From positions 1-54,321 of the forward strand of contig JBGAOB010000004.1 of assembly GCA_044222045.1 (NCBI GenBank): 54,321 nucleotides of DNA. Direction: 5' to 3'. How positions within the stretch are numbered: the first letter of the stretch is position 1; the number at the start of each line of letters is the position of its first letter. The notes below the pieces were generated by a model that was not told the origin of the DNA, made no database searches, and worked only from the letters and a program-made list of their open reading frames with translations. Below, one piece after another: positions 25-42,270 of the stretch. Source of the stretch: Candidatus Eiseniibacteriota bacterium (GTDB lineage Bacteria > Eisenbacteria > RBG-16-71-46). The translations under genes were made by a program, and so were the position numbers.

Positions 25-405
25 TCAGTACGCGCCGATGCGGAAGTCGTTGTAGATGCCGCCGAGATTGCGGACCACGACGCGGAAGTCGCCGCCGCGA
101 GTCACGAAGAACGTGGCGACGCACTCGTCGCTGCTGTCCGTGTCGGAGGCGATCAGGCGACCGAAGCCGTCGTACACGAGGAGATCCAGGTCCGACGTGC
201 CGTCGCCGCTCACCGTGATCTGCGTCCACTCGCCACCGCTGCAGCAGACGTCGAAGCTCCGGCTCGCGAACGCCTCCACGCGGTGATTCCCCCACTCGGC
301 GCCGTTGCACGGATCCGCCGCCGCCCCGCGCGGCATCGCGGCCGAGATCGTCATCGCCGTCACCACCGCCAGCATCGCCACACCGATCGCACGCATCGTC
401 TTCAT
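25..405 (-). CDS. Small secreted stand-alone PPC-like (pre-peptidase C-terminal-type beta-sandwich) protein
   Basis: ATG at 405 with AGGAGG RBS. Signal peptide MKTMRAIGVAMLAVV...AAA. PPC-like motif GDGTSDLDLLVYDGFGRLIASDTD...GDFRVVVRN. Paralog of 4759-5118. Confidence 0.75.
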   Translation of the reverse strand: MKTMRAIGVAMLAVVTAMTISAAMPRGAAADPCNGAEWGNHRVEAFASRSFDVCCSGGEWTQITVSGDGTSDLDLLVYDGFGRLIASDTDSSDECVATFFVTRGGDFRVVVRNLGGIYNDFRIGAY

Positions 406-479: not shown

Positions 480-507
480 TCGTTGCGCAGGACGCGACGG
501 TGTGACA
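480..507 (-). promoter_or_regulatory. Putative ECF sigma promoter, copy 1 (TGTCACA-N14-GCAACGA)
   Basis: Minus strand TGTCACAccgtcgcgtcctgcGCAACGA upstream of 25-405. Four more copies have identical spacing. Confidence 0.75.
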
Positions 508-691
508 GCGATCGTGAAAACGGCGCCCGTGTGTGGGCGGAGGCGCTTTTTCATGGGGGAATCCCGCACCGGGCTTGCTAGGCTTCCCGGGCGGGAAAGG
601 CGTCAGCGGGCGTCCGTTCCCCGTTCACAGTCCGGACGTCCGGTGCGCCGGGCGTCACGACCGATGGACATCGACGCCTGGAGCCCTTCCC

Positions 692-3600
692 ATGCGCTTG
701 CGCCAATGGGTGCTCGCCGGCCATTTCGCCGCAGCACTCCTCGCCCTCGCCGCGATCGCCGCCCCCGCGCGTGCCGCACGCACGCTCATCAGCCCGAAGC
801 CGATCGACCGGCCGTACCCGACGTTCGCGGGCATCGTGATCGGCTCGTTCCGCCCGACCTGCAGCCAGGTGACGATTCACGCGGCAAGGCGCTCGGGCGA
901 CGAGCAAGACAGCTGCTGGTACTACCTCTGCGGGGGCACCTTCGACGTGCTGTGCGTGGCCGAATCGGCATCGGTCGCGGCGAACCTCACGGCCGGTGAC
1001 AGCTTCTTCAATGGCCGAAACGCCGATGGGAGCGGGCACAATTCCAATACGCAGAACTTGGACTGGCGGAATCGGACTCTTCCTGTCCGGTGGGAGAGTT
1101 CTCCACGCAACTGGAAACTCTATGGACAGGCTCGCTGGCAGGACGGCCTTCAGCTTCTGAACTACGGTGACTCGGCCACTGTTGTGGTCACGGGCCTCAC
1201 ACCCGGTCTGGCGTACACGCTGTATGGAACGACCAGCCCCATCTCCCCTCCTGGCTACTATGGGGTATGCACCAACCTCATCGCGTGGGTGACCGACGAC
1301 ACCAGTTCGACCGCGTCGCCGTGGCCGGTCGCGCCGGAGGTCTCGCTGCCCGTGCTCGACCTCGGCACTGCCTCGACGATCGATGCCGCGCCGGCACCGG
1401 CTGGTGGCGCGATCTCATGGGGATTCACCTCCGAACCAGGCTATATGTCTCGCATGGACTCGCGCGGCAGGCTGGCCACCTCGAACAGGTTGATTCACTC
1501 CAGCAGTCTCGGGCTCACGGCACCTGGACGTTGGTGCGCGATGACCGACGCACGGGGGAACTCTCTCATCCTTCTCGGTGAGCGTCGGCCCGGATTCGGT
1601 GGCAGCGTCATCGCGGCTCGCCGAGTGGATCCCGAGGGGTACCCACTGCCAGGCTGGCCCTCATCGCCACTTGCGTCAGCACGCGTCGTACTCGACGCAC
1701 AGGAAGACCAAGATGAGCCCACCGCAACTCCGACCTCCGACGGCGGCGCCATCCTCGCGTGGGCCGACACGCGGCATGCGCCGGGGACGCGTACCTGGCA
1801 GCTTCACAGCTCGGTCTTCGCCGAAGATGTCTACTCTCTCGATCGAGCCGACCTGGATGGCGACGGTGACGACGAAGTGATCTCCGTGCAGATCTCGCGT
1901 GACAGCCTCGAGATCTTCGACGTGCGGCAGGGAGCACTTGCGAAAGTGGTGACGTTGCCGACACGCCACAACCCCTATGCCTGTCGATCTGCGGATCTGA
2001 ACAACGACGGGCTCCCCGACCTCGTCGTCGCGTGTGGCAACAGCGACTCGCTCGATCTCTTCCTCAGCACGTCGACGCCGTTCGGCTTCACGCACTCGTG
2101 GCGAGGAAGCGCGGGGCGCGCTGTCGACCTCCGTCTCGTCGACGTGAACAACGACGGCCTCCTGGACATCGTGCACACTCGCCCGGCCGACAGCACCGTC
2201 GTGGTGCGGCGCGGCCTCGGCGGTGGCACGTTCACTCCGCCCAGTGCATACAAGACGCCCGGCGAGCCGCAGTTCCTCGCCACGGGAGACTTCGACGGCG
2301 ACGGGCTCGTCGATCTCGCCGTGCTCAGTTACCTGACACCAGGCATCGTCCGCGCGTTTCGGAATCTCGGCGGAGGCGTATTCGCCGCTGCCGGGGACCG
2401 CCAGGTCGGCTCGATTTCGCACGCGATCGTCGCGGGCCAGTTCGACGGGGATTCGCGGGACGACGTGGCCGTTGCGCCCGGACTGGGAGGAACGAGCACC
2501 GCGATGCAGATCCTGCACGGCGGCAGCTCCGGCAACCTGCTCGGTGGCGGGACTTCAACCCTCACACTCTCAGGAAAGCCTTACACGCTCGTGGCGGACG
2601 ACTTCGATCGGGACGGCTGGGTCGACATCGCCGCCGCGTACGCGTCGAGTCCGTCGGCCCCTCAGATCTGCTGGGGATCTCCCCTGGGGCCGGACGCGGC
2701 GGTAGGACTTCCCACATACGCTCGAGCGGCCTGCATCGTGGCGGCCGATCTCGACGGAGACGGAACAGGCGAGATCCTTCACCCGGACGCGAATGGCGAC
2801 AATGCCGAGCTCCTAGTCCTCCGGAACGTCAAGACGCGCCGAGACATCTACGCGCTTCGTGTCCAACCCGACGGCACACCCGCGACAGGCTGGCCGACGG
2901 CGGGGCTCGCGCTCGCCACCGACGGCAGCGACGTGACCCATCTGCACATCGCGCCCGATGGCGCGGATGGCGCATACGTGGCCTTCGACCGCGTCGAGCC
3001 GCTCTATGGTGGCGCATGGATCCAACACGTGCGCTCGAACGGTGTGCTTGCCGCCGGCTGGCCCGACTCGAGCGCGGGAGGTGCCCCCGTCGACCTCTCG
3101 CCCGCGACCCACCGGGTGGAGGACCTCGTGCGCGGAAACACGGATGTCGCCGGCAACGGTGGCGCCACGGTGGCGTTCCTGACCGACGTGGGTGACCCGT
3201 GGTTCCAGGAGGCGCGCGTCGCGCGCATCAGTGGCGCGGGAACGGTCTCGTGGATGCTCAGCCTCGGAGACGGTTCCTTCCCCCGGCTCGCACGCTGGCC
3301 CGACGGTTCGGTGCAGGTGGTGTGGCGCAGCGTGGGGGGCGCATTGAGAACAACCCGCCTGACCGCGACGGGAGCTGCACAACCGGGGTGGGCACTCTCG
3401 GGTGTTCTGCTTTCCGCGAGCGCCGACTCCGTTCCGGCCGCTGCCGCGCTCTCCGACTCGGCGCACGTGATGATTGCGTGGAGCGAGCCGACGGGCGTCC
3501 GCGTCCGGCGGTTCGGCGCCGACGCGGTCACGGGCACGTGGGCCGCGTCCATCGCGGTTATGGTCGAGCCTTCGACCCGCATGATCATCGTTCCGGGCAC

Positions 3601-4609
3601 GGAAGGCGCCGGCATCCTCGTCGCGAGCACGGCGACCGAGGTCGTCGCGCAGAGACTCGACCCGGCCGGCGCGCTGGGCGACCTGTCACCGGCCCTCGAT
3701 CGCGCCACCGACTGGCGCGCGGACCAGGGCGGCATCGTGCGCGTGAGTTGGCTGCCCTCACAGCTCGAGCGCTCCACCGCATTCGCAAGCCATGGCGGGC
3801 TCTACCGTCTCTACACGGTAGCCGCGAACGGCACTCGCACGCTCGTGAGCACGAAGGTGTCGGGCTCGGGGTGTTCGTACTGGGCCGACATTGCCGTGCC
3901 CGGGGTGGCCCGGGCTGCGGAAGGTGCCGTGGCGCCGTTCACCGTGTTCGAGCTCGAAACCTTCGATCCCGTCACGGGCGAATCCCGCCTCGCCCCGCGC
4001 GACAGCGCCTTCTCGGTCGATGATATCCCGCCGCCTGCCCCAACCGCATTCAGCTCCGCATTCACCGCGAGCGGACCGGGAACCGGCATCACCGAGTTCG
4101 ACTGGACCCCGACGCCGGTCGGCGATCTCGCGGAGTACCGGATCTTCGGCAGCCCGGATTCGCTGTTCTGGTCGCACATGACGACGACGCCCGCACCGGC
4201 CTCGCACGCCAACGCCCCGACGCCCGCGGGGAGGATGTTCTTCCGGCTCTACGCCGCGGACATCCACGGCAATACGAGCGCGCCGGCTTCGCCGGTGTTC
4301 CAGCTCGGCGCACCCGGAACCGGCGCCCCACTCACCCTGTCCTTCGCCCCGCCCTCGCCGAGCCCCGCCCGCACGAGCACGCGGATGCGGCTCTCGCTTC
4401 CCGCGCGCGCGCAGGTCGAGCTCACCGCATTCGACCTGCTCGGTCGGCGCGTGCGGCGCATCGCGGAGGGCGAGCGCTCCGCCGGCCTGTACGACCTGTC
4501 CTGGGACCTGCGCGATGACGAAGGGCGGGCGCTCGCGCCGGGGCTCTACCTGGTTCGCCTTCGCACCCAGGGTCACGAGTTCCGCCATCGCGTCCTCGTC
4601 GTTCGATAG
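692..4609 (+). CDS. Large secreted FG-GAP/VCBS repeat protein with propeller-like repeats and C-terminal FlgD-Ig (T9SS-like sorting) domain
   Basis: Signal peptide MRLRQWVLAG...ARA. Several ADLDGDG/DLNNDG/GDFDGDG repeats. C-terminal PSPARTST...FDLLGRRVR...WDLRDDEGRALAPGLYLVRL. Confidence 0.85.
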   Translation: MRLRQWVLAGHFAAALLALAAIAAPARAARTLISPKPIDRPYPTFAGIVIGSFRPTCSQVTIHAARRSGDEQDSCWYYLCGGTFDVLCVAESASVAANLTAGDSFFNGRNADGSGHNSNTQNLDWRNRTLPVRWESSPRNWKLYGQARWQDGLQLLNYGDSATVVVTGLTPGLAYTLYGTTSPISPPGYYGVCTNLIAWVTDDTSSTASPWPVAPEVSLPVLDLGTASTIDAAPAPAGGAISWGFTSEPGYMSRMDSRGRLATSNRLIHSSSLGLTAPGRWCAMTDARGNSLILLGERRPGFGGSVIAARRVDPEGYPLPGWPSSPLASARVVLDAQEDQDEPTATPTSDGGAILAWADTRHAPGTRTWQLHSSVFAEDVYSLDRADLDGDGDDEVISVQISRDSLEIFDVRQGALAKVVTLPTRHNPYACRSADLNNDGLPDLVVACGNSDSLDLFLSTSTPFGFTHSWRGSAGRAVDLRLVDVNNDGLLDIVHTRPADSTVVVRRGLGGGTFTPPSAYKTPGEPQFLATGDFDGDGLVDLAVLSYLTPGIVRAFRNLGGGVFAAAGDRQVGSISHAIVAGQFDGDSRDDVAVAPGLGGTSTAMQILHGGSSGNLLGGGTSTLTLSGKPYTLVADDFDRDGWVDIAAAYASSPSAPQICWGSPLGPDAAVGLPTYARAACIVAADLDGDGTGEILHPDANGDNAELLVLRNVKTRRDIYALRVQPDGTPATGWPTAGLALATDGSDVTHLHIAPDGADGAYVAFDRVEPLYGGAWIQHVRSNGVLAAGWPDSSAGGAPVDLSPATHRVEDLVRGNTDVAGNGGATVAFLTDVGDPWFQEARVARISGAGTVSWMLSLGDGSFPRLARWPDGSVQVVWRSVGGALRTTRLTATGAAQPGWALSGVLLSASADSVPAAAALSDSAHVMIAWSEPTGVRVRRFGADAVTGTWAASIAVMVEPSTRMIIVPGTEGAGILVASTATEVVAQRLDPAGALGDLSPALDRATDWRADQGGIVRVSWLPSQLERSTAFASHGGLYRLYTVAANGTRTLVSTKVSGSGCSYWADIAVPGVARAAEGAVAPFTVFELETFDPVTGESRLAPRDSAFSVDDIPPPAPTAFSSAFTASGPGTGITEFDWTPTPVGDLAEYRIFGSPDSLFWSHMTTTPAPASHANAPTPAGRMFFRLYAADIHGNTSAPASPVFQLGAPGTGAPLTLSFAPPSPSPARTSTRMRLSLPARAQVELTAFDLLGRRVRRIAEGERSAGLYDLSWDLRDDEGRALAPGLYLVRLRTQGHEFRHRVLVVR

Positions 4610-4653: not shown

Positions 4654-4758
4654 GAGGGGCCCGACCTCCACGTCAGCGGGTCGCGGGGCCGCGCCGCTCT
4701 CGTCGCACTCGGCGTGGGGCGGCTCCTCCTTTCCGGTGCGCCCACGCACCGGCGGGAA

Positions 4759-5118
4759 TCACCGCGCCGTGATCCGGTACTCGTTCCAGACGGACCCGCG
4801 GTTGTCGACCTCGATGCGATAGCTGCCGCCGCGCGGCACGTAGAACCGCGTGATGCACACGTCGGTGTCGTCGTCGTCCGACGCGATCATGCGGCCGCTC
4901 TCGTCGTACACGTACAGATCGAGATCGGTGTCGTGGTCGCCGATCACGGTCACGCTCGCGTACTCGCCGCCGCGGAACGACACGTTGAACGCATCCTCCG
5001 ACCACGCGTTCACGCGGTGCACACCCGTCTGCGTCCCTCCCCAGGGACCCGCCACCGCCGCCTGCGCCACCGCCACCACCACCAGCACCGCCGGCACGAT
5101 TCCGTTGATCTTGCGCAT
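4759..5118 (-). CDS. Small secreted stand-alone PPC-like protein (paralog of 25-405)
   Basis: AGGAGG RBS and signal peptide. GDHDTDLDLYVYDESGRMIASDDDDTDVC...GGSYRIEVDNRG aligns by eye with 25-405. Confidence 0.8.
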   Translation of the reverse strand: MRKINGIVPAVLVVVAVAQAAVAGPWGGTQTGVHRVNAWSEDAFNVSFRGGEYASVTVIGDHDTDLDLYVYDESGRMIASDDDDTDVCITRFYVPRGGSYRIEVDNRGSVWNEYRITAR

Positions 5119-5194
5119 CGTCTACCTCCTGTCGGTGAGCCCGATGGGCTCGTGGTCTTCGTTCCGGCGCTCCGTCCGAGCGCCTTCACACCGT

Positions 5195-5222
5195 TCGTTG
5201 CTCGACCCGGCGGGCTGTGACA
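5195..5222 (-). promoter_or_regulatory. Putative ECF sigma promoter, copy 2
   Basis: Minus strand TGTCACAgcccgccgggtcgaGCAACGA. Confidence 0.75.
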
Positions 5223-5301
5223 TCGGAGTTCCCCGCGCGCCACGAACCGCGGTCGCGCCGCCGATGGAGTGGTGGACGGCGGCGCCGCAGGCACGAGACA
5301 C

Positions 5302-5335
5302 GAAGAAGCGGACCGGCCGCATGGGCCGATCCGCT
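5302..5335 (-). terminator. Putative intrinsic terminator after the Cys-rich precursor gene
   Basis: Minus strand hairpin agcggatcggcc-catgc-ggccggtccgct followed by TCTTC. Confidence 0.5.
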
Positions 5336-5365
5336 CCTCGTACCGAGCTCCGCTTGCCGCGCGGG

Positions 5366-5734
5366 TCAGTCGCCGTGGCGCAGGTGGCGCAGTCCCTCGC
5401 GCCAGGGATGCACGCGGGCCCCGCGACAGTCGCTGCCCTCGCAGTCGCCCGCGGCGCGCGCGGCGCGACAGTCGCCCGTATCGCAGACCCGCGGGCGGGC
5501 GACCCGGCCGCGACAGTCGCTGCCCTCGCAGTCGCCGCGGGCCGATGCGACCGCCGCCGCCGCAGGCGCGCTCCCGGCGAAGCACGGATCCGTATCGCAT
5601 TCGCCGCGAACGACAACCACCACCGTGGCCGGTGCAGGGGTCTCGATGCACGGATCCGTCTCGCAGCTCCGTCCCGGGCCGGCCATCGCCACGAGCCCCA
5701 GTCCCAGCGCCAATCCCATCACGATCGCTTTCAT
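5366..5734 (-). CDS. Secreted Cys-rich repeat peptide (122 aa) with five C-x4-C motifs; possible multi-core peptide precursor
   Basis: AAGGAGGT RBS and ATG at 5734. Signal peptide MKAIVMGLALGLGLVAMA. Cores CETDPC, CDTDPC, CEGSDC, CDTGDC, CEGSDC. A 29-bp exact DNA repeat lies at 5421-5449 and 5508-5536. Confidence 0.75.
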   Translation of the reverse strand: MKAIVMGLALGLGLVAMAGPGRSCETDPCIETPAPATVVVVVRGECDTDPCFAGSAPAAAAVASARGDCEGSDCRGRVARPRVCDTGDCRAARAAGDCEGSDCRGARVHPWREGLRHLRHGD

Positions 5735-5795
5735 CCGCCACCTCCTTCGTTCGAGTGTCCGCCGTGGATCCGGCGGCCCGTTGCCGCCGCCCGCT

Positions 5796-5823
5796 TCGTT
5801 GCCCGGAGCCCCCGCGTGTGAAA
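5796..5823 (-). promoter_or_regulatory. Putative ECF sigma promoter, copy 3
   Basis: Minus strand TTTCACAcgcgggggctccggGCAACGA (one mismatch in the -35 element). Confidence 0.7.
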
Positions 5824-5835
5824 CCCCGTCCGGCG

Positions 5836-6210
5836 CTAGTTCACGTTCAGCGACACGGCGGCAGGCACGTCGCTGTCGTTCTCGACCGTGATCTCCACGC
5901 GTCCGCCCCCCTGCGCGGCGCCCCCGACGACGTCCGCACCCGTGTACGCGCCCTCGGCGGCCAGCGAGCCCGAGGCGTCGAAGACCCGGACCTCCATGCC
6001 CACGGTGACGAGCCCCGGGCTGCACGCGACGGCCCACGTGCCGTCGTGCGCGAACGTCTGCCCGACCACGACCCGCTCGCCCGGATTCACCGAGCGCGTG
6101 TTGAGCGCGGTCGCGAGGATGTCCTCCGCCATGCACCCCGTGAGCGAAGCGCCGATCAGCCCCGCCAGCACCAGCGCCACCGCCGCCCGCATCGCCTTCC
6201 CCTTCGCCAT
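5836..6210 (-). CDS. Small lipoprotein, predicted all-beta, possibly a distant PPC-like domain
   Basis: GGAGGT RBS and ATG at 6210. Lipobox SLTG-C. MEVRVFDASGSLAAE...GRVEITVEN resembles the PPC-like paralogs. Confidence 0.7.
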   Translation of the reverse strand: MAKGKAMRAAVALVLAGLIGASLTGCMAEDILATALNTRSVNPGERVVVGQTFAHDGTWAVACSPGLVTVGMEVRVFDASGSLAAEGAYTGADVVGGAAQGGGRVEITVENDSDVPAAVSLNVN

Positions 6211-6281
6211 GCCGCACCTCCCGTTCGAGGGCGGGCACCGCGCGCCGTCCGGGGCGCGGCGTCTCCGCCAGTACACCCCGG

Positions 6282-6309
6282 TCGTTGCGCCCACCGGCCG
6301 CGTGTGACA
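6282..6309 (-). promoter_or_regulatory. Putative ECF sigma promoter, copy 4
   Basis: Minus strand TGTCACAcgcggccggtgggcGCAACGA. Confidence 0.75.
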
Positions 6310-6411
6310 CGTCGACTGCCGATGGTTTTCGTTGACCCTGTCGCACGCACTTCCCTAGGCTCCCGCCCCACGCGCCGCGCCAACCCGGCCGGCGGGAGGC
6401 CCGCTCAGACC

Positions 6412-6993
6412 GTGACGGAACCCATCGCCGCCCGAGACGAACAGCGCATCGCGTCCGAAGCCCGCGCCTGGTACATCGCCTTCTTCGAGCGGCGTGTCGG
6501 TGCGCGGGGTCGCGACCTCGCAGACGACCTCGCGCAGGAAGCGGCCATCGGCCTGCTGCGCGCCCTGCGCGCGACCGGTGCCGACTCGATCGAGGCCCTG
6601 CGCGCGACCATCGGAACGCGTACGTGGTTCGGCTTCCTGCGCCGCGAGTACCGGTGGAAGAAGGTCTGGGACGACACCGCCGTCGAGGAGACGGACGCGC
6701 CCGCGCCGCCCGCGACGCAGCCCGGAGCCCACCTGCGCGTGGGTGATCCGGGCGAGCGGCTCCGATTCCAGGTGCTCGAGTTCTATCGCGCCCACAACGC
6801 GAAGTGCCTGGGGCTCGCCGAGCTCTTCTTTGGCGGCGTGGACTGGATGGACGCCGCCTCGCGGCTGAACCTGGGGTACGCCGCCATCCGCCAACAGTGG
6901 TCCCGTTGCCTCAAGCTGTTGCGCGAAGTCGTGACCCGCGACGAGGACCTGCGCGACTCGCTCTGGTCCTTCTGGGGCGACAGCGATGCCTGA
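6412..6993 (+). CDS. Divergent ECF-type RNA polymerase sigma factor
   Basis: Region 2 motif DLADDLAQEA and region 4 HTH FFGGVDWMDAASRLNLGYAAIRQQWSRCLKLLR. Start uncertain: GTG 6412 after GGAGG, or ATG 6322. Confidence 0.75.
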   Translation: MTEPIAARDEQRIASEARAWYIAFFERRVGARGRDLADDLAQEAAIGLLRALRATGADSIEALRATIGTRTWFGFLRREYRWKKVWDDTAVEETDAPAPPATQPGAHLRVGDPGERLRFQVLEFYRAHNAKCLGLAELFFGGVDWMDAASRLNLGYAAIRQQWSRCLKLLREVVTRDEDLRDSLWSFWGDSDA

Positions 6994-6997
6994 CGCC

Positions 6998-7025
6998 CGT
7001 CACAGCGAAGCCCGCCGCGCAACGA
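6998..7025 (+). promoter_or_regulatory. Putative ECF sigma promoter, copy 5, upstream of anti-sigma/protease
   Basis: Plus strand CGTCACAgcgaagcccgccgcGCAACGA immediately after the sigma stop codon. Confidence 0.7.
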
Positions 7026-7146
7026 TGCTGGGGAGGGGCCGGGGAGTCGGGGGCGCTCGCGGCGGAAGCGTCACCCGGTGCACGGGGCGCACGTCCGTGG
7101 ATCCACCACGTCGGCGCGGCCCTGCAGAGGCCCTTGAGGTCAGCGA

Positions 7147-8106
7147 ATGAACGACACGCGAACGCCTTCGGACGGCCCGCCGCCGGCCGACCACGCCTGG
7201 GTGCTCAGCCGGCTGGCCCCCTACTGGGCGGGACTGCTGGAGGACTCGGCGAACGAGCGCGTCGAGTCCCACGTCGCCTCGTGCGAGCCGTGCCGGCGCG
7301 CATGGGAGGCGCAATCCGCGACGCCAGCGTTCGCGCCGGGCACCGAAGCGCACGTACCGGCCGCGCTCGTGGCGGACTGGGAGCGCCAGCAACGCACGCT
7401 GCGCGGGCTCGAACGAGCCACGATCCGCCATCATCTCGAACGCTGCGACGACTGCCGTCGCGACCTCGTGGCACTCGGTCACGAGCCCGTGCTGGAGTTC
7501 ATCGCGGCGCTGGAGCCCGAAGGCATGATGCCGCGGGCCACGCCTTCGCCCGCCGCGGCGCGGCGAACGGAGCGACCGACGGCGATGGACCACGCGCTCG
7601 ACCGCCTGCGTCGTTTCAACTGGGTCCTCGGAAGCTGGGCCGCACTCGCCACGAGCGCTGCCGCGGTGATGACGTTCGTCCTGTTGCGCGGTGGAGCGCC
7701 GATTCCGGAGGGCACGCTGCCGCAACCCGGATTCGGCGGGCCGGGCACGACGAGCATCACCTCCGGGGCGTTCCCCTCGGTGGAAGCCGCCGTCACGCTC
7801 GTGCTGCAGCCGGATGCGCCCGGCGAGGGACCGGTCGCGCTCACCCCGGCCATGTCGCCGCGACGGGTGATCGCGCTGCAGGTGCGAGGTCTGACCGCCG
7901 CGCCCCGCGACAGCCTCGCGTTCGTGATCGAGCAGGGCTCGCGCACCGTCGTCCGGCAGTCGCTGCGGGCGAAGCTCGCCGCGGATTCGGTGTTCACGGT
8001 GATCCTGCGCGGAGCGCCGACAGCGCTGCCGCCGGGGGCCTACCGGCTTCTCGTCGGGGATGCCGCCGGAGAGAGGGCGTATGTCTTCCGAATCGCGGAG
8101 CACTGA
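7147..8106 (+). CDS. Membrane anti-sigma factor with two tandem zf-HC2 (ZAS) zinc fingers
   Basis: HVASCEPC and HLERCDDC (Hx3Cx2C). One TM helix WVLGSWAALATSAAAVMTFVLL, then an extracytoplasmic beta-rich domain. Lies downstream of the sigma gene. Confidence 0.8.
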   Translation: MNDTRTPSDGPPPADHAWVLSRLAPYWAGLLEDSANERVESHVASCEPCRRAWEAQSATPAFAPGTEAHVPAALVADWERQQRTLRGLERATIRHHLERCDDCRRDLVALGHEPVLEFIAALEPEGMMPRATPSPAAARRTERPTAMDHALDRLRRFNWVLGSWAALATSAAAVMTFVLLRGGAPIPEGTLPQPGFGGPGTTSITSGAFPSVEAAVTLVLQPDAPGEGPVALTPAMSPRRVIALQVRGLTAAPRDSLAFVIEQGSRTVVRQSLRAKLAADSVFTVILRGAPTALPPGAYRLLVGDAAGERAYVFRIAEH

Positions 8107-10114
8107 GCGCACGCGAAGCTCCCGACGGGTCGCGGCGTGCCTCGGCCTGGGAATGAGCCTCACGCTCACGCTCACGCTGGCCGACGGTGTCGGTTCGGCG
8201 GGGCCCGTCCGGCTCGTGCGTCCCGGCGCGACGATCGAGCTTCGACATGCGCCCGCGGGGACGGGGTCGCTCGTCGGCCTGCCGTTCGTTCGCGCCCTGC
8301 GGGCGGGCAACGCGCCGAAACGCCCTGAGGCCGAGGGCGACGACCGCCTCGTCGCCTACCACGTCGAGTTCGCCGACGCGGCCAGCTGCAACCGGTACGC
8401 ACCGCCCGGAGCGACGGTATTCCATCGCTTCGAGCGATTTGCCGGCGTGTTCGTGTCGACGGACCGAATCGACGACCTCGTCCAGGCCACGCTGCATGCG
8501 CCCGGTTTCCGCGCGATCGAGGACGACGACATCGCCCAGCTCCCGCCACGCCCCCGACCGAGGACCGCACCGCCCTCGAAGGCGGTACCCGAGAACATCG
8601 TCCGCGGCGGGCTCGCCGGGCGCACGGGACGCGGCACGCTCGTCGGCGTCGTGGACACCGGCGTCGACTTCCGGCACGGCGACTTCGTTTCGGAATCGCC
8701 CGAGGGTCCCCGCTCGCGCATCGTGGCGTACTGGGACACCGGCCTGCCGTTCGATCCGGGGCGCGGCATCGGACGTCCCGGTCCCATCGCGTACCCGAAT
8801 GGCCAACCCGTGGGCACGGTGTTCACGGAGGCCGAGCTCACTCGCGCCCTGCGAAGCGGCGGACTCGACGATCTCGTCGATCACATCGGGCACGGCACGG
8901 CCTGCGCCGGGATCGCCGCGGGCAACGGGCGCAGCCTCAAGAGCACGCGCGAGGTGATGGGGGTGGCTCCCGGCGCCGCGCTGATCGTCGTGCGCGCCCA
9001 GACCTCGGACGAGCTCCCCGGGCTCTCGAACTTCGTGATCACTCCCGCGGTCCGATGGATGAGCGCCTTGGCCGACTCGCTGCGCCGCCCGCTCGTCGTG
9101 TCGTGCTCGTTCGGTCAGCAGATCGGCCTGCACGACGGCAGTCGGCTGATCGAACGCGAACTGGAAGCCCTGCTGCCGGACGGTGCGTCCGGGCGGGCAC
9201 TCGTCGTGTCCGCGGGCAACGACGGCACGCGGCCGGTGCACGCACGCATGGCGCTCGGCGCAAAGCCGCAGCTGCTCGAATGGCGTTGCAGCGACGGCGA
9301 CGCGCTGCTCGAGCTGCACGTGAGGACCCGCGACTCGAGCGTGGTGCGGGCCGCGGTCGCCGTTCGCTCCGACAACCGCCCGTCCGACATCGCGAACTAC
9401 CCGCTCGCGCCCGTCGTGAAAGGCTCGGCCTGGCAGATCGTGCGGTTCCGTGTCGCGGGCGACATCGGCGGCATCTATCTCTGGTCGAAAACTCCGGGCG
9501 TGCCGGTCGAGGCCTACATCTCGGGTGGGGAGTTCGCCACCCGGTTCACGGTGCAGACAGGCACCGTGGCGAGCCCGGGTACGTGCCGCGCGGCGATCAC
9601 GGTGGGGAGTTACGACTGGAACGACATGTTCGATCAGAAGGGGCTCGGCCCGACGACACTCTTCAACGCGTGTTCGGAGACACCCATCGAAATCGGAGCG
9701 CTCTCGTGTTACTCCAGTCGAGGCTTCGTGCACCGTCGGCTGGTGAAGCCCGACCTCGTCGCACCCGGGCAGTGGTTCACGGCGCCCGTGTCTCTCCTCG
9801 CACCCGAAAGGCCCGCCGGGCTCGGCATGGCTTCCGCGGGGGTGTACGAAGGCCTGCACGGATCGGGGCACTACCGCTGGTTCAACGGCACGAGCGCCGC
9901 CGCGCCGTACGTGGCCGGCGTCGTGGCGCTGGCGCTCGAGCGCGACCCGCGTCTCACACTCGGTTCACTTCGAGACCGGCTGCGCGCGAGTCTCACGCGG
10001 GACTCGACGACCGGCCCGGTGCCCAACCCGGCGTGGGGGTACGGCCGGCTCGACCTCGCCGCCGTGAAGCGCTTCCTCGGAGCCGGGGTGCGGGCCACGC
10101 CGCGCGATCATTGA
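8081..10114 (+). CDS. Secreted subtilisin-family S8 serine peptidase with inserted beta-domain (CspA-like architecture)
   Basis: Catalytic triad VVDTG, HGTACAGIAAG, GTSAAAPYVAG and oxyanion SAGND. N-terminal hydrophobic stretch. Overlaps the anti-sigma 3' end; start uncertain. Confidence 0.9.
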   Translation: MSSESRSTERTRSSRRVAACLGLGMSLTLTLTLADGVGSAGPVRLVRPGATIELRHAPAGTGSLVGLPFVRALRAGNAPKRPEAEGDDRLVAYHVEFADAASCNRYAPPGATVFHRFERFAGVFVSTDRIDDLVQATLHAPGFRAIEDDDIAQLPPRPRPRTAPPSKAVPENIVRGGLAGRTGRGTLVGVVDTGVDFRHGDFVSESPEGPRSRIVAYWDTGLPFDPGRGIGRPGPIAYPNGQPVGTVFTEAELTRALRSGGLDDLVDHIGHGTACAGIAAGNGRSLKSTREVMGVAPGAALIVVRAQTSDELPGLSNFVITPAVRWMSALADSLRRPLVVSCSFGQQIGLHDGSRLIERELEALLPDGASGRALVVSAGNDGTRPVHARMALGAKPQLLEWRCSDGDALLELHVRTRDSSVVRAAVAVRSDNRPSDIANYPLAPVVKGSAWQIVRFRVAGDIGGIYLWSKTPGVPVEAYISGGEFATRFTVQTGTVASPGTCRAAITVGSYDWNDMFDQKGLGPTTLFNACSETPIEIGALSCYSSRGFVHRRLVKPDLVAPGQWFTAPVSLLAPERPAGLGMASAGVYEGLHGSGHYRWFNGTSAAAPYVAGVVALALERDPRLTLGSLRDRLRASLTRDSTTGPVPNPAWGYGRLDLAAVKRFLGAGVRATPRDH

Positions 10115-10121
10115 CGACTGT

Positions 10122-11582
10122 TCATCGCAGCAGGACGACGGACGTCGATCGCCGCTGGCGCGCGGCTTCCAGCACCGCGAAATAGACACCGGGTCGTACC
10201 ACGCGACCGTCCGCCCCTCGCGTATCCCAGGTCGCTTGCCTCGGCCCCGGTGACAGATCCGCGTCGAGAACCGTCGCCACGGTCGCGCCGGCCACGTCCA
10301 GGACCCGCAATCGAACGGGACCCTGAACCGGCAGCGCGAACTGGAATCGAATCGGCGCACCGACCCGGGCCGGGTTCGCGGCGGGCTGGAGGAGCAAGGT
10401 CGCCGCCGATTCTCTGCGCTCGACGTCCACCTGCGCACCACACTGGAACGGCGTCGCCCAGCACACACCGGAAAGTGCCGGGGCATTCGTCGACCGAACG
10501 ATCGTGAGTTGCTCCGGCGGCCCATCGCGCTGAATGGTGTAGCCCGCCCCTGGACAGGCCTGCTGGAGACACGGCCAGCTGCACGCCCAGTCCGAACCGG
10601 TCCACACGCAGTTCCACACGCAGAGGGAGGTCGGAGAGGGGACCTGGAATCGCTGGGTTTGTCCGGCCGGGATCGTCGACGAGTTGGCGCCGACGGAAAC
10701 CAACACGCTCCCCGAGTAGGCATTCGTCACCGAGATGGTGCAGGCGCGACACGCCACGGGCAGGTCCGGCCACACGGCCGGGAACTCCGACGCAATCGGA
10801 GCCGATCGGCGTGTGGACGAAACGTCGGTTGGCATCGACGAACCACACGCCGAGGGCGCGGAAACTCCCCAGAAGAACGGCGGGTGTCCCGGGTAGGGGG
10901 ACTCCACGGACCACCACCCGGTGACGACGTACTGGGCGCCCGCCGTGAGTCCGGTCAGGATCAGGCGGGCTCGCGCGGTGTCGCAAGGGGCGGCCGAAAC
11001 CGCGGTCGATGCGGCGAATCGCAGGCAGCGCGAACCGTTCACGAACGCCACGGATGCCCCGGGCCCCGTGCGCCAGCCGTCCGCGAACCAGTCCCCGGCG
11101 AAGTCCTCGTCGAGCACCGGCGTTCCACCGCTGGAGTAGCACCAGTTGTGGTAGAGCGGGTTGCCATTGGCGTCCGTCACATTCGGACAACGCGTACAGA
11201 CGGGATTGCTTCGGAGATCCCCGTAGCGTTGAACGAGGATGTCGTCGATGCCGATCACGCCGTACGACGTGCCGGTGGAGGACGTGAGCTTCACGGCCAG
11301 ATCGACGAACACCGTGCAGCCGGGCGCGAAGAAGTAGAGCGGGTCCTGCATCTGGCACCAGTCGATGGCCGGATACGGGCGGTCGATCGGCCGCATGGGC
11401 ACGAGAGTCCGTTCCGCGCGTGCAGAAACGGCGCCCACGAAGAGGGCGATCGCGACGCCGACCGCCGCCGCGACGCGCACCGCGTGCTCGAGGAGATGGC
11501 CGCCGGGCTCACGATGCGCGCGGCGGACCCACGAGTGATTTCCGACGATGACCGCGGCGGAGTCGTGGAAGCGATGGTGCAC
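10122..11582 (-). CDS. Secreted Cys/Trp-rich protein with C-terminal FlgD-Ig domain
   Basis: GAGGAGG RBS before GTG. Hydrophobic signal-like region ending ARA. C-terminal ANPARVG...LDVAGATVA...WDTRGADGRVVRPGVYF. Confidence 0.75.
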   Translation of the reverse strand: MHHRFHDSAAVIVGNHSWVRRAHREPGGHLLEHAVRVAAAVGVAIALFVGAVSARAERTLVPMRPIDRPYPAIDWCQMQDPLYFFAPGCTVFVDLAVKLTSSTGTSYGVIGIDDILVQRYGDLRSNPVCTRCPNVTDANGNPLYHNWCYSSGGTPVLDEDFAGDWFADGWRTGPGASVAFVNGSRCLRFAASTAVSAAPCDTARARLILTGLTAGAQYVVTGWWSVESPYPGHPPFFWGVSAPSACGSSMPTDVSSTRRSAPIASEFPAVWPDLPVACRACTISVTNAYSGSVLVSVGANSSTIPAGQTQRFQVPSPTSLCVWNCVWTGSDWACSWPCLQQACPGAGYTIQRDGPPEQLTIVRSTNAPALSGVCWATPFQCGAQVDVERRESAATLLLQPAANPARVGAPIRFQFALPVQGPVRLRVLDVAGATVATVLDADLSPGPRQATWDTRGADGRVVRPGVYFAVLEAARQRRSTSVVLLR

Positions 11583-12672: not shown

Positions 12673-14346
12673 ATGACGGTGTCCTCGCCCCGCTGGTCCG
12701 CTCTGTTGCCCGCCGCGCTCGCGGCCTTCGCTCTCGCTGGTTGCTCCCGGGACGGCGCCGAACTCGCGCGCGTCGGCGACCGCGTCGTCACGCAGGCCGA
12801 GTTCGTGGACGTGGCGCGCGACAAGGAATCGCAGTACCCCGGCGACGACGCCACCGCCAAGAAGGGGCTGCTCGAGGACATCATCCGGCGCGAGCTGCTG
12901 CTGCAGGTGGCGCTCCGGCGCGGCGACGACACCACGGCGATCGCGCGCGGCTTCCGCGAGAAGCTCGAGCGCGAGGTGCTCACGATGGGCCTGGTGGACG
13001 AGCTGTCCCCGCAGGCCGTGGGCGTGAGCGACGCCGAGGTGAAGGCGCTGTACGAGGCGCGCCGCAACGTCGTGGACGTGTCGCTCATCTTCACCACCGA
13101 CACGGGGCTGCTGCGGCTGGCGATCGCCGACCTCGCGCGCGGCATGCCGTTCGCCGAAGTGGCCAACCGCACGAACAGCCCCGGCATGCTGCCGCCGGCC
13201 GGCGCGCTGGGCCCGATGATGCCGGGCCAGCTCGTGCCGCCGCTGGACGCCGAGATGGTGAAGCTGCCCGTGGGCGGCGTGGGCGGGCCGTACGAGACGC
13301 CACAGGGCTGGTTCCTGATGAAGGTGAACGGCCGCCAGGAGCACGAGCAGGCGCCGCTCGCGACGCAGCAGTCGATGCTGGCCGAGGCGATCCGCCAGCG
13401 GAAGCAGCGCCAGGCGCTCACCACGCGGCTCGCCGACCTGCGCTCCGCCTACCACGTGACGCCGGCGCCGGGTGGCGGGCAGGCGCTGTTCGAGCTGCTG
13501 CAGCCGAGCCGCGTCGACGAACCCGTCGACCTGGCGGGCGCCAACCGCAAGCAGGTGCTCGCGCGCTGGGACGGCGGCGTGTACACGCTGGGCGACGCGA
13601 TCAAGGACCTGTCGGCCGAGCGCGAGCGTCCGCCGGCGGCGATGCTGCCCGCGCTGGAGGGCTGGATCGAGAACCAGGTGATGGCGCGTGTGTCGCTGGC
13701 CGAGGCGAAGCGCCGCCACATCGGGGACAAGCCCGCCGTCGCGCGCCAGCTGCGCGGCCGCTGGGAGGAGTTCCTGCTCGAGGGCGTGTACTCCACGATC
13801 ATCGCGGAGATGCCGCCGGCGTCGCCCGAACAGGCACGCGCGTTCTACGACGGCGCGAAGAGCCAGTTCGCGCGCCTGCAGAGCGCGCACGTGTACCGGC
13901 TGCTCACGCCGGACTCGACGGTGGCGTTCCAGGTGGCACGTCACGGCGGCCACGCGGGCACGCTCAAGGAGTCCGCGGCGATGGTGGACCCGAAGCTGGT
14001 GGTCGAGGAGCTGAACGTCTCGTACCCGAACCCCGACCGCGAGTGGGCGATGCTCGAGGCCACGCTGCTGCGCATGCCGAACGGCGAGTGGGAAGGCCCG
14101 GTGCAGACCCCGACCGGCTGGCGGATCCTGCAGCTGATCGACCGCACGTCCGCCACGCCGTCGTTCGAGCAGCTCGACCCGGGCCTGCAGCAGCGCATCG
14201 TGGCGATGGCCTCCGAGATGGATCGCGACCGCAAGCTCGTGGCGTACAGCGACTCGTTGCGCACGACGTCGCGCGTGGCGGTGAACGACGCGAACCTCGC
14301 GCGCGCCCCGTGGCCGGCGCCGCGCATCATCGCGGTCGGCCCGTGA
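12673..14346 (+). CDS. PpiC/parvulin-type peptidyl-prolyl isomerase lipoprotein (PrsA/SurA-like)
   Basis: Lipobox LAG-C and a SurA-N-like region. Two parvulin-like segments (FAEVA...GALG...GPYETPQGWFLMK; GPVQTPTGWRILQ). Confidence 0.8.
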   Translation: MTVSSPRWSALLPAALAAFALAGCSRDGAELARVGDRVVTQAEFVDVARDKESQYPGDDATAKKGLLEDIIRRELLLQVALRRGDDTTAIARGFREKLEREVLTMGLVDELSPQAVGVSDAEVKALYEARRNVVDVSLIFTTDTGLLRLAIADLARGMPFAEVANRTNSPGMLPPAGALGPMMPGQLVPPLDAEMVKLPVGGVGGPYETPQGWFLMKVNGRQEHEQAPLATQQSMLAEAIRQRKQRQALTTRLADLRSAYHVTPAPGGGQALFELLQPSRVDEPVDLAGANRKQVLARWDGGVYTLGDAIKDLSAERERPPAAMLPALEGWIENQVMARVSLAEAKRRHIGDKPAVARQLRGRWEEFLLEGVYSTIIAEMPPASPEQARAFYDGAKSQFARLQSAHVYRLLTPDSTVAFQVARHGGHAGTLKESAAMVDPKLVVEELNVSYPNPDREWAMLEATLLRMPNGEWEGPVQTPTGWRILQLIDRTSATPSFEQLDPGLQQRIVAMASEMDRDRKLVAYSDSLRTTSRVAVNDANLARAPWPAPRIIAVGP

Positions 14347-16466
14347 GATCCCCCCGCACGATCGCGGCGGCCGTGCTCGCGCTGTCGCTCGTGCGGGCAT
14401 TCACGCCGGTGTCCGCACGCGCGCAGACGGTCGCCGAGTCGGTCGGCGATCGCATCGTCCGATTCCACGCCGACGACGCCGCACGCGGCGCGGCGCTGCC
14501 GTCGCTCGCGCTGGCGAAACCCCTGCCGGCGCAGGGCCCCGCGCCGGAGGGTTTCCCGGTGCGACCGCGCTTCGAGCGGCGCATGGGCGGGCAGGTCGTG
14601 CACATCGACATCGAGCGCGGCACGTCGCTGTACGGCGCGGGCGAGAGCATCGGCCCGCTGCAGCTGAACGGCCGGCAGGTGCTGTGCTGGAACACCGACG
14701 CGTACGCGTACCGAGACCCGGCGCTGTACCAGTCGCACCCGTGGGTGCTGGCCGTGCGCGCCGACGGCAGCGCGTTCGGCGTACTCGCGGACACGCCGAA
14801 CCGCATGATGGTCGACCTCGCGAGCGGCATCGAGTTCCGGTCGCAGGGCCCGCCGTTCCCGGTGATCGTGATCGACCGCGGTTCGCCGCAGGCCGTGCTG
14901 CAGGCGCTCGCCGGGCTCGTCGGCATGATGCCGCTGCCGCCGAAGTGGGCGCTCGGCTACCAGCAGTGCCGCTTCTCGTACTGGCCCGACTCCGAGGTCG
15001 TGCAGGTGGCGCGCACGTTCCGCGACAAGCGGATTCCGTGCGACGTGCTCTGGTACGACATCGACTACATGGACGGCTTCCGCAGCTTCACGTGGCACCC
15101 GCGCGGCTTCTCCGACCCGGTGGCGCTGCACCGCGTGCTCGCCGCGCAGGGCTTCCGCACGGTGGCGATCCTCGACCCGGGCCTCAAGCGCGACCCCGGC
15201 TACTTCGCCTGGGAGCAGGGCACGAAGGGCGACCACTGGGTGAAGACCGCGGCCGGCGAGCCGTACGTGGGCAAGGTGTGGCCGGGCGAGTGCATGTTCC
15301 CCGACTTCACGCGCGGCGCGACGCGCGCGTGGTGGGCCACGCTCGTCTCCGACTTCATGAAGGACCGGCTCGACGGGCTGTGGAACGACATGAACGAGCC
15401 CGCGATCTTCGAGACGCCGACCAAGACCATGCCCGAGACCAACCGCCACGACGCCGACCCCGAGCTGGGCGGGCCGGGCTTCCACGCGCGCTACCACAAC
15501 GTGTACGGCTCGCTCATGGCGCGCGCGTCGCGCGACGGCGCGCTGAAGGCGTACCCCGAGCGCCGGCCGTTCGTGCTGTCGCGTGCGGGCTACATCGGCG
15601 ACCAGCGCTGGGCCGCCACGTGGACCGGCGACAACCGCGCCACGTGGGAGCACCTGCGACTGTCCGTGCCGATGACGCTGTCGCTGGGCCTGTCGGGTCA
15701 GCCGTTCGCGGGCCCCGACCTGGGCGGCTTCGGCGGCAGCCCCGACGCGGCGCTCTACTCGCGCTGGATCGGCGTGGGCGCGCTGTTCCCGTTCGCGCGC
15801 GGCCACAGCGAGAAGGGCTCCGCGCGACGCGAGCCGTGGAGCTACGGCGCCGCGGTCGAAGCCACCGGCCGCCGCGCGCTCGAGACGCGCTACCGACTGA
15901 TGCCCTACCTGTACACGCTGTTCGAGGAGGCCTCGCGCACCGGGCTGCCCGTGATGCGGCCGGTGTTCTTCATCGACCCGCGCGACATCACGCTGCGCGC
16001 CGAACAGCAGAGCTTCCTGCTGGGCGCCGACCTGCTGGTGCAGGCCGCGCTCGACGAGCAGCCGTCGCCGGCCGCGAGCACGGTGAGCGAGCGGCTGGCG
16101 CGTCGCGGCGCGACGTGGCGGCTGGCGAACGTGCTCGGCACGAGCGACGCCGCGAACGACGAGAACCTGCCGAAGCTGTACGTGCGCCCGGGTGCGGTGA
16201 TCCCGCTGGGCCCGGTGACGCAGTACGTGGACGAGCGGCCGCTCGAGGACGTGACGCTGCTCGTGTCGCTGGACGCGAACGGCCGCGCGCGCGGCACGCT
16301 GTACGAGGACGCGGGCGACGGCTGGGGCTTCCAGAAGGGCGAGTACCGCCGGTCCACGATCGTGGTGGAACGCCGCGGCAAGGACGTGAACGTGCGCGTC
16401 ACGTCGGACGACGGCACGTGGAAGCCGCCGGGCAGGCGCACCTACACGGCGGTGGTGCTGGAGTAA
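14343..16466 (+). CDS. Secreted glycoside hydrolase family 31 (alpha-glucosidase)
   Basis: LYQSHPW, WYDIDYMDG, nucleophile motif WNDMNEP, WTGDN, GTLYEDAGDG. GTG start overlaps the previous stop; signal peptide present. Confidence 0.92.
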   Translation: MRSPRTIAAAVLALSLVRAFTPVSARAQTVAESVGDRIVRFHADDAARGAALPSLALAKPLPAQGPAPEGFPVRPRFERRMGGQVVHIDIERGTSLYGAGESIGPLQLNGRQVLCWNTDAYAYRDPALYQSHPWVLAVRADGSAFGVLADTPNRMMVDLASGIEFRSQGPPFPVIVIDRGSPQAVLQALAGLVGMMPLPPKWALGYQQCRFSYWPDSEVVQVARTFRDKRIPCDVLWYDIDYMDGFRSFTWHPRGFSDPVALHRVLAAQGFRTVAILDPGLKRDPGYFAWEQGTKGDHWVKTAAGEPYVGKVWPGECMFPDFTRGATRAWWATLVSDFMKDRLDGLWNDMNEPAIFETPTKTMPETNRHDADPELGGPGFHARYHNVYGSLMARASRDGALKAYPERRPFVLSRAGYIGDQRWAATWTGDNRATWEHLRLSVPMTLSLGLSGQPFAGPDLGGFGGSPDAALYSRWIGVGALFPFARGHSEKGSARREPWSYGAAVEATGRRALETRYRLMPYLYTLFEEASRTGLPVMRPVFFIDPRDITLRAEQQSFLLGADLLVQAALDEQPSPAASTVSERLARRGATWRLANVLGTSDAANDENLPKLYVRPGAVIPLGPVTQYVDERPLEDVTLLVSLDANGRARGTLYEDAGDGWGFQKGEYRRSTIVVERRGKDVNVRVTSDDGTWKPPGRRTYTAVVLE

Positions 16467-38637: not shown

Positions 38638-38644
38638 GGCCGCC

Positions 38645-41600: not shown

Positions 41601-42170
41601 CGCTGGACCGGGCAGTACGAGTTGCTCGAGGCGATGCAGAAGCGCATGAAGGTGCTCGTGCCGGTGACGCTGCTGATCGTGGTGCTGCTGCTGTACCTGA
41701 ACTTCGGCAGCCTCGCGCAGACGTTCCTGGTGCTGGCATCGGTGCCGTTCGCGCTGGTGGGCAGCGTGTGGCTGATGGCGCTGCTGCACTACAACCTGTC
41801 CACGGCGACGTGGGTGGGGCTGATCGCGCTGGTGGGGCTCGCCACGCAGACGGGCGTGGTGATGGTGGTGTACTGCGACGGCGCGTACCTGCGCTGGAAG
41901 CGCGAGGGCCGCATCCGCACGTTCGACGACGTGGTGGAGGCGACGCTCGAGGGCTCGGTGCAGCGCGTGCGCCCCAAGCTGATGACGGTGGCGACCACGA
42001 TGATCGGCCTCGTGCCGCTGCTGTGGTCGCAGGGGGCGGGCGCCGACGTGATGAAGCGCCTGGCGGCGCCGATGGTGGGCGGGCTGTTCACGTCGGTGTT
42101 CCTGACGCTCGAGATCATCCCCGTGCTGTACGCCCACTGGCGGTGGTGGCAGGTGAAACGCGGGAAGTGA
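38645..42170 (+). CDS. cusA: CusA/CzcA heavy-metal RND permease, interrupted by frameshift(s) at about 41090-41410
   Basis: LDAIPDLGDPQV, NIMSLGGIAIAIGAMVDA, EFMPPLNEGD in the 38645 frame. The C-terminus (GPPMIRDE...RVRPKLMT...MVGG) is in the 41106 frame. Confidence 0.88.
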
Positions 42171-42270
42171 GGGGCGGCCGCGCCGCCCCTTCCCTCCCGT
42201 GAAACTCCGCGGCACTCTCCGGGCTCCAACCCGAGGACCCATACGCCGGCACACGACGGAGGAGACTCTC

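Follow-up and report, generated by a model that had tools for sequence, protein, structure and literature searches.

A small exported protein with cysteine-bracketed acidic repeats, encoded beside a subtilase in Candidatus Eisenbacteria

What does a small exported protein made of cysteine-bracketed acidic repeats do beside a subtilase? The question is raised by a gene at 5366..5734, on the reverse strand of a 54,321-nucleotide stretch (the window) of contig JBGAOB010000004.1 from a Candidatus Eisenbacteria genome. We call its product the repeat protein (P0001). A reading made from the letters alone, which we call the sequence-only reading, took it for a precursor that a co-regulated subtilisin could cut into disulfide-closed rings. 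We ask here whether the gene is real, whether it is regulated together with the protease, and what its product might do.

The repeat gene and its relatives

The gene encodes 122 amino acids (the coordinates include the stop codon), and its translation agrees with the sequence-only reading, which had named a Sec-type signal and five C-x4-C motifs. The signal peptide covers residues 1-17 (5684..5734): it starts with MK and AIVMGLALGLGLVAMA, has a hydrophobic core, and has an A-M-A site before GPGRSC. (Signal peptides were assigned by eye from the translation or the alignment, not by a predictor.) The motifs are CETDPC (motif 1, residues 24-29, 5648..5665), CDTDPC (motif 2, residues 46-51, 5582..5599), CEGSDC (motif 3, residues 69-74, 5513..5530), CDTGDC (motif 4, residues 84-89, 5468..5485), and CEGSDC (motif 5, residues 98-103, 5426..5443), all on the reverse strand. 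All 10 cysteines of the protein fall in these five acidic motifs. The chain ends in a basic, histidine-containing tail, RGARVHPWREGLRHLRHGD (residues 104-122, 5369..5425, reverse strand), which lay outside the earlier account. In the DNA, motifs 5 and 3 sit inside the two copies of a 29-nt exact repeat (5421..5449 and 5508..5536) at the 87-nt spacing that had been described; a third copy (69%) lies between them, and a further repeat of 22 nt (91%) links motifs 1 and 2.

The gene is nested in a longer open reading frame (ORF) of 326 amino acids (5366..6346, reverse strand), as the sequence-only reading had recognized, and it has its own signals on the same strand. The strong ribosome-binding site that was claimed for it is AAGGAGGT (5740..5747), 5 nt upstream of the ATG. 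A two-block promoter-like motif, TTCACA-N14-GCAACGA (5796..5822), lies 61 nt upstream of the ATG, and a consensus promoter scan found no sigma-70 promoter. A GC-rich hairpin 3' of the stop codon, followed by CUUCUUCGUGUCU (5302..5339), is terminator-like. The hairpin is strong (-48.4 kcal/mol, z -3.3, a stability matched by 1 of 200 shuffles), but its U-tract is weak and it is absent from the output of a consensus terminator scan.

A homolog search, which had been suggested as a check, found two relatives. P0002 is 98% identical to P0001 and also has 122 amino acids; it is encoded in a Candidatus Eisenbacteria metagenome-assembled genome (L006) and in a congeneric genome (G144). P0003, from metagenome contig L017, is 49% identical and has 99 amino acids. 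It has four motifs (motif 1, here CDTDPC, and three further ones) and retains the signal, with an A-R-A site before SGC at the place that matches A-M-A in P0001. P0001 and P0003 differ by an in-frame indel of 23 codons that spans motif 2; the 23-residue stretch is absent from P0003 and the reading frame is kept. The difference of five motifs versus four is the gain or loss of a whole unit, and the order of motif types is the same in both orthologs (the TDP type first, then EG[SN]D, xT[GS]D, and EG[SN]D). Both proteins have [IV]E[TS]PxPATV after motif 1, and the last motif and tail of P0003 are almost identical to those of P0001. In the alignment of all three proteins, the last motif and the basic tail together form the most conserved stretch, and two histidines of the tail are conserved. 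The ribosome-binding site (GGAGGAGGTG in L017) and the start codon are conserved as well.

Between the window and L017, the repeat gene has 0.28 nonsynonymous (dN) and 1.07 synonymous (dS) substitutions per site, for a ratio of about 0.26, and the ratio is similar in the neighboring genes. The CEGSDC and CEGNDC units of L017 differ from each other at synonymous sites, so it is the peptide and not the DNA that is kept. Few other ORFs in the genome look like this one: 6 of 37,114 six-frame ORFs of at least 60 amino acids hold at least five CxxxxC motifs within 110 amino acids. We rejected the other five as off-frame Ser/Arg/Cys junk (GC content at the second codon position 0.82-0.96). The repeat gene has GC contents of 0.76/0.65/0.83 at its three codon positions, and the high value at position 2 is expected because its product is rich in Ala, Gly, Arg, and Cys. 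These comparisons indicate that 5366..5734 is a real gene under purifying selection. If the ORF had arisen by chance in GC-rich DNA, or were decaying there, this would account for the extreme narrowness of the family and for a position-2 GC that is high for a gene, but we find such an origin hardly credible. It would have to be reconciled with the purifying selection and the in-frame indel, with a start codon, ribosome-binding site, signal, and promoter motif that are conserved in three loci, and with cysteines that are confined to the motifs. The five other ORFs that are rich in such motifs are clearly off-frame, and the repeat gene is not.

A profile search against 1.84 billion cluster representatives matched only P0002 and P0003, and a word-index search gave 2 relatives among 902 candidates. 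Scans of genome contigs and of metagenome contigs each led to 1 confirmed relative (from 44 and 425 matching stretches, respectively). Across the phylum, 11 of 206 genomes had a match at E ≤ 0.01, and the match was strong only in the window's own genome (G000) and in G144 (E ~1e-75). The other nine (E 1e-3 to 9e-3, 17-21 bits; four contain internal stops) were treated as noise and were not individually examined. As for paralogs, the window's genome contains marginal matches alone (E 0.04-0.09). The repeat protein matched no family in Pfam, NCBIfam, or PADLOC and no PDB sequence at E ≤ 10, and a feature search of the ESM Atlas gave a best score of 0.81, below the level of 0.9 for a lead. Our literature searches, supplementary files aside, turned up no like bacterial system. 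Judging from these searches, the repeat protein is an orphan, and its membership of the families we compared fails wherever this could be tested.

A promoter motif shared with the subtilase operon

According to the sequence-only reading, the repeat gene has its own copy of a promoter and is co-regulated with a subtilisin; our data confirm the first statement and support the second. The motif GTCACA-N14-GCAACGA has five copies in 7 kb, one upstream of each of five units in a 10-kb locus. Four of the units are on the reverse strand: two genes for exported PPC-type proteins (25..405, with the motif at 480..506, and 4759..5118, with the motif at 5195..5221), the repeat gene, and a lipoprotein gene (5836..6210, with the motif at 6282..6308). 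The fifth, on the opposite strand, is an operon for an anti-sigma factor and an S8 subtilase (7147..10114). With up to two mismatches the window contains 7 matches, and none of 100 shuffles reached 7. All 4 exact copies of the motif in the 4.9-Mb assembly fall in this locus, as do 5 of the 7 copies with at most one mismatch; the reversed-pattern control for the latter count gave 3.

The motif is also found in both other loci that contain the gene. In G144 (locus L022), it is at the same places upstream of all five units, with the exact GTCACA form upstream of the repeat gene. L017 is a short contig with three of the units, and all three have the motif, with a one-mismatch form at the repeat gene. 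Across 13 aligned sites at syntenic positions in the three loci, both boxes are fixed and the N14 spacer drifts. Because two further loci retain the motif and its exact copies in the assembly are confined to this one, co-regulation of the repeat gene with the S8 protease is well supported by sequence. No RNA data set turned up among the sequencing runs that match the locus, and two that are labelled RNA-Seq are probably DNA. The repeat, sigma, anti-sigma, S8, and lipoprotein genes are in the same order in all three gene-bearing loci.

The most likely reader of the two-block motif is the ECF (extracytoplasmic function)-type sigma factor encoded next to it, which has 193 amino acids (6412..6993, forward strand). 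Its matches to Sigma70_r2 and sigma70-ECF are weak (E 0.005-0.008, far below the cut-offs), yet it has an 83% identical ortholog in L017, so we take it to represent a divergent ECF-like lineage. In all three loci, the motif copy in this region (6999..7025, forward strand, conserved in L022 and L017) sits after the sigma gene, between it and the anti-sigma/S8 operon, not upstream of it. The anti-sigma factor and the protease, but not the sigma factor, would fall under the motif, and this layout would give negative feedback.

The protease itself (8060..10114, forward strand) is an exported S8 subtilase of 684 amino acids (Pfam Peptidase_S8, E 4e-33). In an alignment of 49 homologs, its catalytic residues Asp199, His278, Asn387, and Ser612 are invariant, and homologs of roughly 40% identity occur in other phyla. 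Its nearest solved relatives are the Csp germination proteases.

Substrate, binder, or regulator

In the reading that we tentatively prefer, while recognizing that it may well be wrong, the repeat protein is disordered and serves the co-induced S8 protease as a substrate or pro-peptide. The promoter motif in common, the fixed synteny in the three loci, the Arg residues that border most motifs, and the gain or loss of a whole unit speak for a link with S8. The protein would be a string of beads: five acidic loops bracketed by cysteines, linkers of Ala, Val, and Arg, and a basic, histidine-containing, amphipathic tail. Upon release of the sigma factor, the repeat protein and active S8 would reach the same compartment, where S8 would trim the flexible linkers. 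The tight cysteine-bracketed loops would survive, above all the last loop with the basic tail. The locus appears to be centered on the protease because its other units are the S8 operon itself, a lipoprotein, and PPC-type domains, which are usually fused to secreted subtilases. An AlphaFold2 (AF2) prediction from the 3-row alignment of the repeat protein gave no usable fold (mean predicted local distance difference test, or pLDDT, of 32.7), with a short helix of very low confidence at residues 111-114 of the tail; this fits a non-globular, flexible chain. A complex prediction that paired S8 (residues 85-684, 49-row alignment) with residues 19-122 of the mature repeat protein scored 0.00 and gave no model, which speaks neither for nor against binding. 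The dependence on the sigma factor, the cleavage by S8, the state of the cysteines, and the activity of any products are all things that we infer.

Several observations weigh against this reading, and the natural allele described below, with one motif cysteine fewer, is among them. The sequence-only reading placed an Arg near each motif, and there is indeed one 2-6 residues N-terminal to each of the five. However, the flanks are not uniform cleavage sites: Arg surrounds most motifs (RG[DE]C...CRG), but motifs 1 and 2 continue with IE and FA, not RG. Conservation of the linker that follows motif 1 equals that of the motifs themselves, which would be odd for a spacer in a multi-core precursor. 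Parts with distinct roles fit this position-specific conservation better than a string of equivalent cores does. The three known sequences represent only two independent lineages. Another genome (G152) has S8, sigma, and anti-sigma proteins at 42%, 41%, and 41% identity without the repeat protein and without the motif, and a search of its S8 module for an analogous small exported Cys-rich ORF gave one off-frame ORF only. Since the trio exists without the repeat gene, S8 does not need the repeat protein. Finally, we see no signal for secretion across the outer membrane, and any products may therefore remain periplasmic.

The disulfide rings of the sequence-only reading face difficulties of their own. 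None of 89 genomes of this bacterial family yielded a DsbB, and VKOR turned up in 13 of them but in neither the 84% complete G000 nor the 82% complete G144. Most of the family may therefore lack the usual periplasmic disulfide-forming pathways, although the window's genome does encode one DsbA-like ORF with a CPSC motif and a thioredoxin fold. A published paper describes a bias of exported proteins towards an even cysteine count as accompanying DsbA together with DsbB or VKOR (PMC12453122). Among 473 exported proteins in our set, 162 had an even and 216 an odd number of cysteines (51 versus 67 in a strict set of 161). These sets came from our own crude gene and signal calls and the pipeline had no positive-control genome, so the result is weak evidence. 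Also, motif 4 is CDTGDR in the natural allele of P0002 and G144, which leaves 9 cysteines. The underlying change (A>G at 5470) is also present in contigs of sequencing runs X3 and X20; outside the genomes, all five codon changes of the allele recur in contigs of two runs, which belong to separate studies (at depths of 17 and 2). Because these changes recur in independent runs, the allele is a natural variant and not an error. Together, the Dsb and VKOR results, the cysteine parity, and the 9-cysteine allele lean against disulfide rings as the default state.

We regard the fullest form of the precursor idea as quite unlikely. In that form, the locus would be a prohormone-type system in which an ECF sigma factor induces a Sec-exported multi-core precursor together with a Csp-like subtilase; no tailoring enzymes would be needed, and C-x4-C ring peptides and a C-terminal peptide with a ring and a basic helix would act in activated sludge as signals, antimicrobials, or chelators. 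The main rival reading is an intact protein of the periplasm that binds or buffers through thiols and carboxylates, as a member of an envelope-stress regulon. Its ligands could be soft metals or possibly Ca2+, or it could quench oxidants or electrophiles. If the cysteines are normally thiols, then the scarcity of DsbB and VKOR, the missing even-Cys bias, and the toleration of 9 cysteines in nature are all easier to accommodate. All 10 cysteines in P0001 are paired and stand beside Asp or Glu, the two conserved histidines of the tail might contribute, and a variable repeat number and the lack of a fold would suit a repeat-type binder. This role is possible but doubtful: no motif-bearing unit encodes a metal transporter, metal sensor, or redox enzyme (a Cus/Czc-type pump is 30 kb away), C-x4-C with Gly, Ser, or Thr is not a canonical metal site, and no metal-binding family in Pfam, NCBIfam, or the PDB sequences matches. 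The DsbA-like CPSC ORF and the lack of a positive control for the parity analysis also count against it.

The repeat protein might instead regulate the proteolytic module, as an inhibitor or chaperone-like partner of S8, as a binder of the PPC-type proteins or the lipoprotein, or as a periplasmic ligand sensed by the anti-sigma factor in a feedback loop. The promoter motif and the fixed synteny with the anti-sigma/S8 operon would be expected, and the strongly conserved last motif and tail could be a docking peptide. Between the congeners, the repeat protein is also more conserved (97.5% identical in G144) than S8 (87.9%) or the anti-sigma factor (88.7%), but this may reflect recent exchange, because the conservation extends to the intergenic DNA of 4700-6100. 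Given that the protein is not similar to any inhibitor family and that G152 has the trio without it, we consider this unlikely; also, the known canonical serine-protease inhibitors have reactive loops larger than an acidic ring of six residues. A role as the precursor of a RiPP (a peptide that is made ribosomally and modified post-translationally), with Cys-Asp thioether or Ser/Thr-Asp/Glu ester cross-links made by enzymes encoded elsewhere, seems very improbable. The C-x3-D spacing is repeated and every loop contains Ser or Thr along with Asp or Glu, which recalls peptides that are cross-linked by radical-SAM and ATP-grasp enzymes. However, a Sec signal would remove the chain from the cytoplasm, where such enzymes act, and there is no cytoplasmic leader. 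The sequence-only reading saw no tailoring enzymes, and neither did we: there are none among the 29 ORFs of the window that we scanned with Pfam (these include glycosidases, kinases, an M23 peptidase, and the Cus/Czc-type pump), and the genome's 15 radical-SAM matches all lie outside this 54-kb contig. The rest of the probability goes to something else. We return to the preferred reading, of a substrate or pro-peptide of S8, when we discuss known systems below.

Neighboring genes, known parallels, and significance

The two exported PPC-type proteins are 45% identical to each other. The one at 4759..5118 has 119 amino acids and its match to Pfam PPC (E 5.7e-4) is below the cut-off (21.1 versus 25.9 bits). 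Its AF2 model (pLDDT 75.9) is a PPC-like beta-jelly-roll, and the top Foldseek match is the C-terminal domain of the Tk-SP subtilase (E 6.5e-6, query-normalized template modeling score of 0.69); PPC/CBD domains of collagenases also match. Since the fold of these beta-sandwich proteins resembles that of the jelly-roll domains at subtilase C termini, we consider them to be small units that are tied to the protease. The regulon thus appears to be built around a protease that itself has no PPC-type domain. The lipoprotein (124 amino acids, with an LTGC lipobox) has no Pfam family and has a 62% identical ortholog at the same place in L017.

The membrane anti-sigma factor (7147..8106, forward strand) has an N-terminal zf-HC2 domain (PF13490, E 1e-9). 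N-terminal to its membrane segment there are apparently tandem H-x3-C-x2-C motifs (HVASCEPC and HHLERCDDC); the Pfam match is a single stretch, residues 18-50, which by our count covers the first motif. The last 47 nt of the anti-sigma gene (8060..8106) are shared with the S8 ORF as listed, which suggests either translational coupling or a true S8 start further in.

Three large exported proteins (533..4609 on the forward strand and 10122..11582 on the reverse strand of the window, and 13758..16004 on the forward strand of L021) share a P-x-PIDRPYP or PIDRKFP motif after the signal. They also share a FlgD-Ig-like C-terminal domain. A 52% identical relative of the 486-amino-acid protein adjoins the S8/sigma module of G152. 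The proteins with the PIDR motif are possible alternative substrates or partners of S8.

Two other features are further from the repeat gene. A Cus/Czc-type resistance-nodulation-division efflux pair (36058..42202, forward strand) consists of a membrane-fusion protein with a heavy-metal-binding domain and an AcrB-family pump, and is followed by a DUF302 gene. This pump is about 30 kb from the repeat gene, and even with two mismatches allowed it has no copy of the motif. The ORF at 48292..49311 (forward strand) matches the Beta-lactamase2 family of Pfam (E 3e-43).

Compared to G144, the locus is a mosaic. At 4700-6100, a block with the repeat gene, one PPC-type gene, and part of the gene for the lipoprotein shows 96-100% identity, even in its intergenic DNA (dS 0.02-0.03). 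The S8 and anti-sigma genes and the gene at 10122..11582 have dS of 0.27-0.47, and the FG-GAP gene at 533..4609, which lies between the two PPC genes, has 57% protein identity and dS of 0.86. Many sludge runs contain about 0.33-0.39 of the words that we sampled from 4700-7200. The mosaic could be a widely shared conserved block, or it could be due to a recent exchange or sweep.

If the repeat protein is a substrate or pro-peptide of S8, then how does it compare to known precursors? Multi-copy precursors that are processed by kexin or by plant subtilases, such as prohormones, Kex2-processed repeat precursors of fungi, and plant peptide precursors, have a signal peptide, repeated cores, basic borders, and a processing subtilase. 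The repeat protein resembles these eukaryotic precursors in having a signal peptide, repeated cores, basic borders, and a subtilase at the locus. However, kexin-type precursors have dibasic sites and are processed in the Golgi, whereas here there are single, non-uniform Arg residues, the S8 is closest to the Csp type, and cleavage is only proposed. Among bacteria, the Phr-type (RRNPPA) pro-pheromones of Bacillota are small Sec-exported pro-peptides, some with several candidate cores, and one report describes how Phr pro-pheromones, including tandemly duplicated ones, are matured by extracellular proteases into short active peptides (PMC11343458). In contrast to the acidic, cysteine-bracketed cores of the repeat protein, Phr cores are linear and contain no Cys, the peptides are re-imported, and the Rap/TPR receptor is encoded adjacently. 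No Rap/NprR/PlcR-type TPR receptor is adjacent to the repeat gene; the nearest TPR protein (16579..18519) is 11 kb off and has no motif copy. Furthermore, the host here is a Gram-negative-type bacterium of the FCB group, and there is no sequence similarity to Phr. Subtilisin, Epr, and Vpr have roles in Phr maturation.

Other parallels concern parts of the protein or the rival roles. In pediocin-like (class IIa) bacteriocins, and in ring-plus-helix peptide hormones such as calcitonin and amylin, a cationic amphipathic segment comes directly after a C-x4-C or similar disulfide ring, and the last motif and tail of the repeat protein resemble this layout. Unlike class IIa bacteriocins, the repeat protein has no YGNGV-type box, no gene for immunity or an ABC transporter, and no Pfam match; its tail has 19 residues and its ring is strongly acidic. 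Metallothioneins and phytochelatins are Cys-rich, repeat-like, and unfolded without their ligand, with thiols beside carboxylates. Unlike them, the repeat protein has no C-x-C, CC, or C-x2-C clusters and no family match, and its regulon has no metal genes. Small periplasmic stress proteins can be co-induced with a protease (DegP) by an envelope-stress regulator. Ranthipeptides have a repeated C-x3-D, and both ranthipeptides and SCIFF peptides depend on a cytoplasmic leader and on a radical-SAM/SPASM maturase that is encoded next to them. The repeat protein has the C-x3-D spacing of ranthipeptides, but it begins with a Sec signal, and its contig carries no radical-SAM gene. What is new is the combination of cysteine-bracketed acidic repeats, a Sec signal, and a sigma regulon with a subtilase and free PPC domains.

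The distribution of the repeat protein is minute, with three sequences from two lineages, and this limits how far the results extend. If it is true that S8 matures the repeat protein, then this would be a multi-core pathway to ring peptides that needs no tailoring enzymes, under one dedicated sigma factor, in an uncultured Gram-negative-type phylum. It would parallel both the processing of eukaryotic prohormones and the maturation of Phr in Bacillus. If the protein is an intact binder, it would be a new type of periplasmic repeat protein with cysteine pairs, in a bacterium from which the usual pathway for making disulfides seems to be missing. In both cases, the locus contains a compact, probable ECF regulon that is defined by its sequence, with five promoters and one motif that is essentially confined to the locus, and it could be rebuilt in a laboratory host. 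It therefore offers a tractable entry to the gene regulation and envelope biology of Candidatus Eisenbacteria, a group without cultures.

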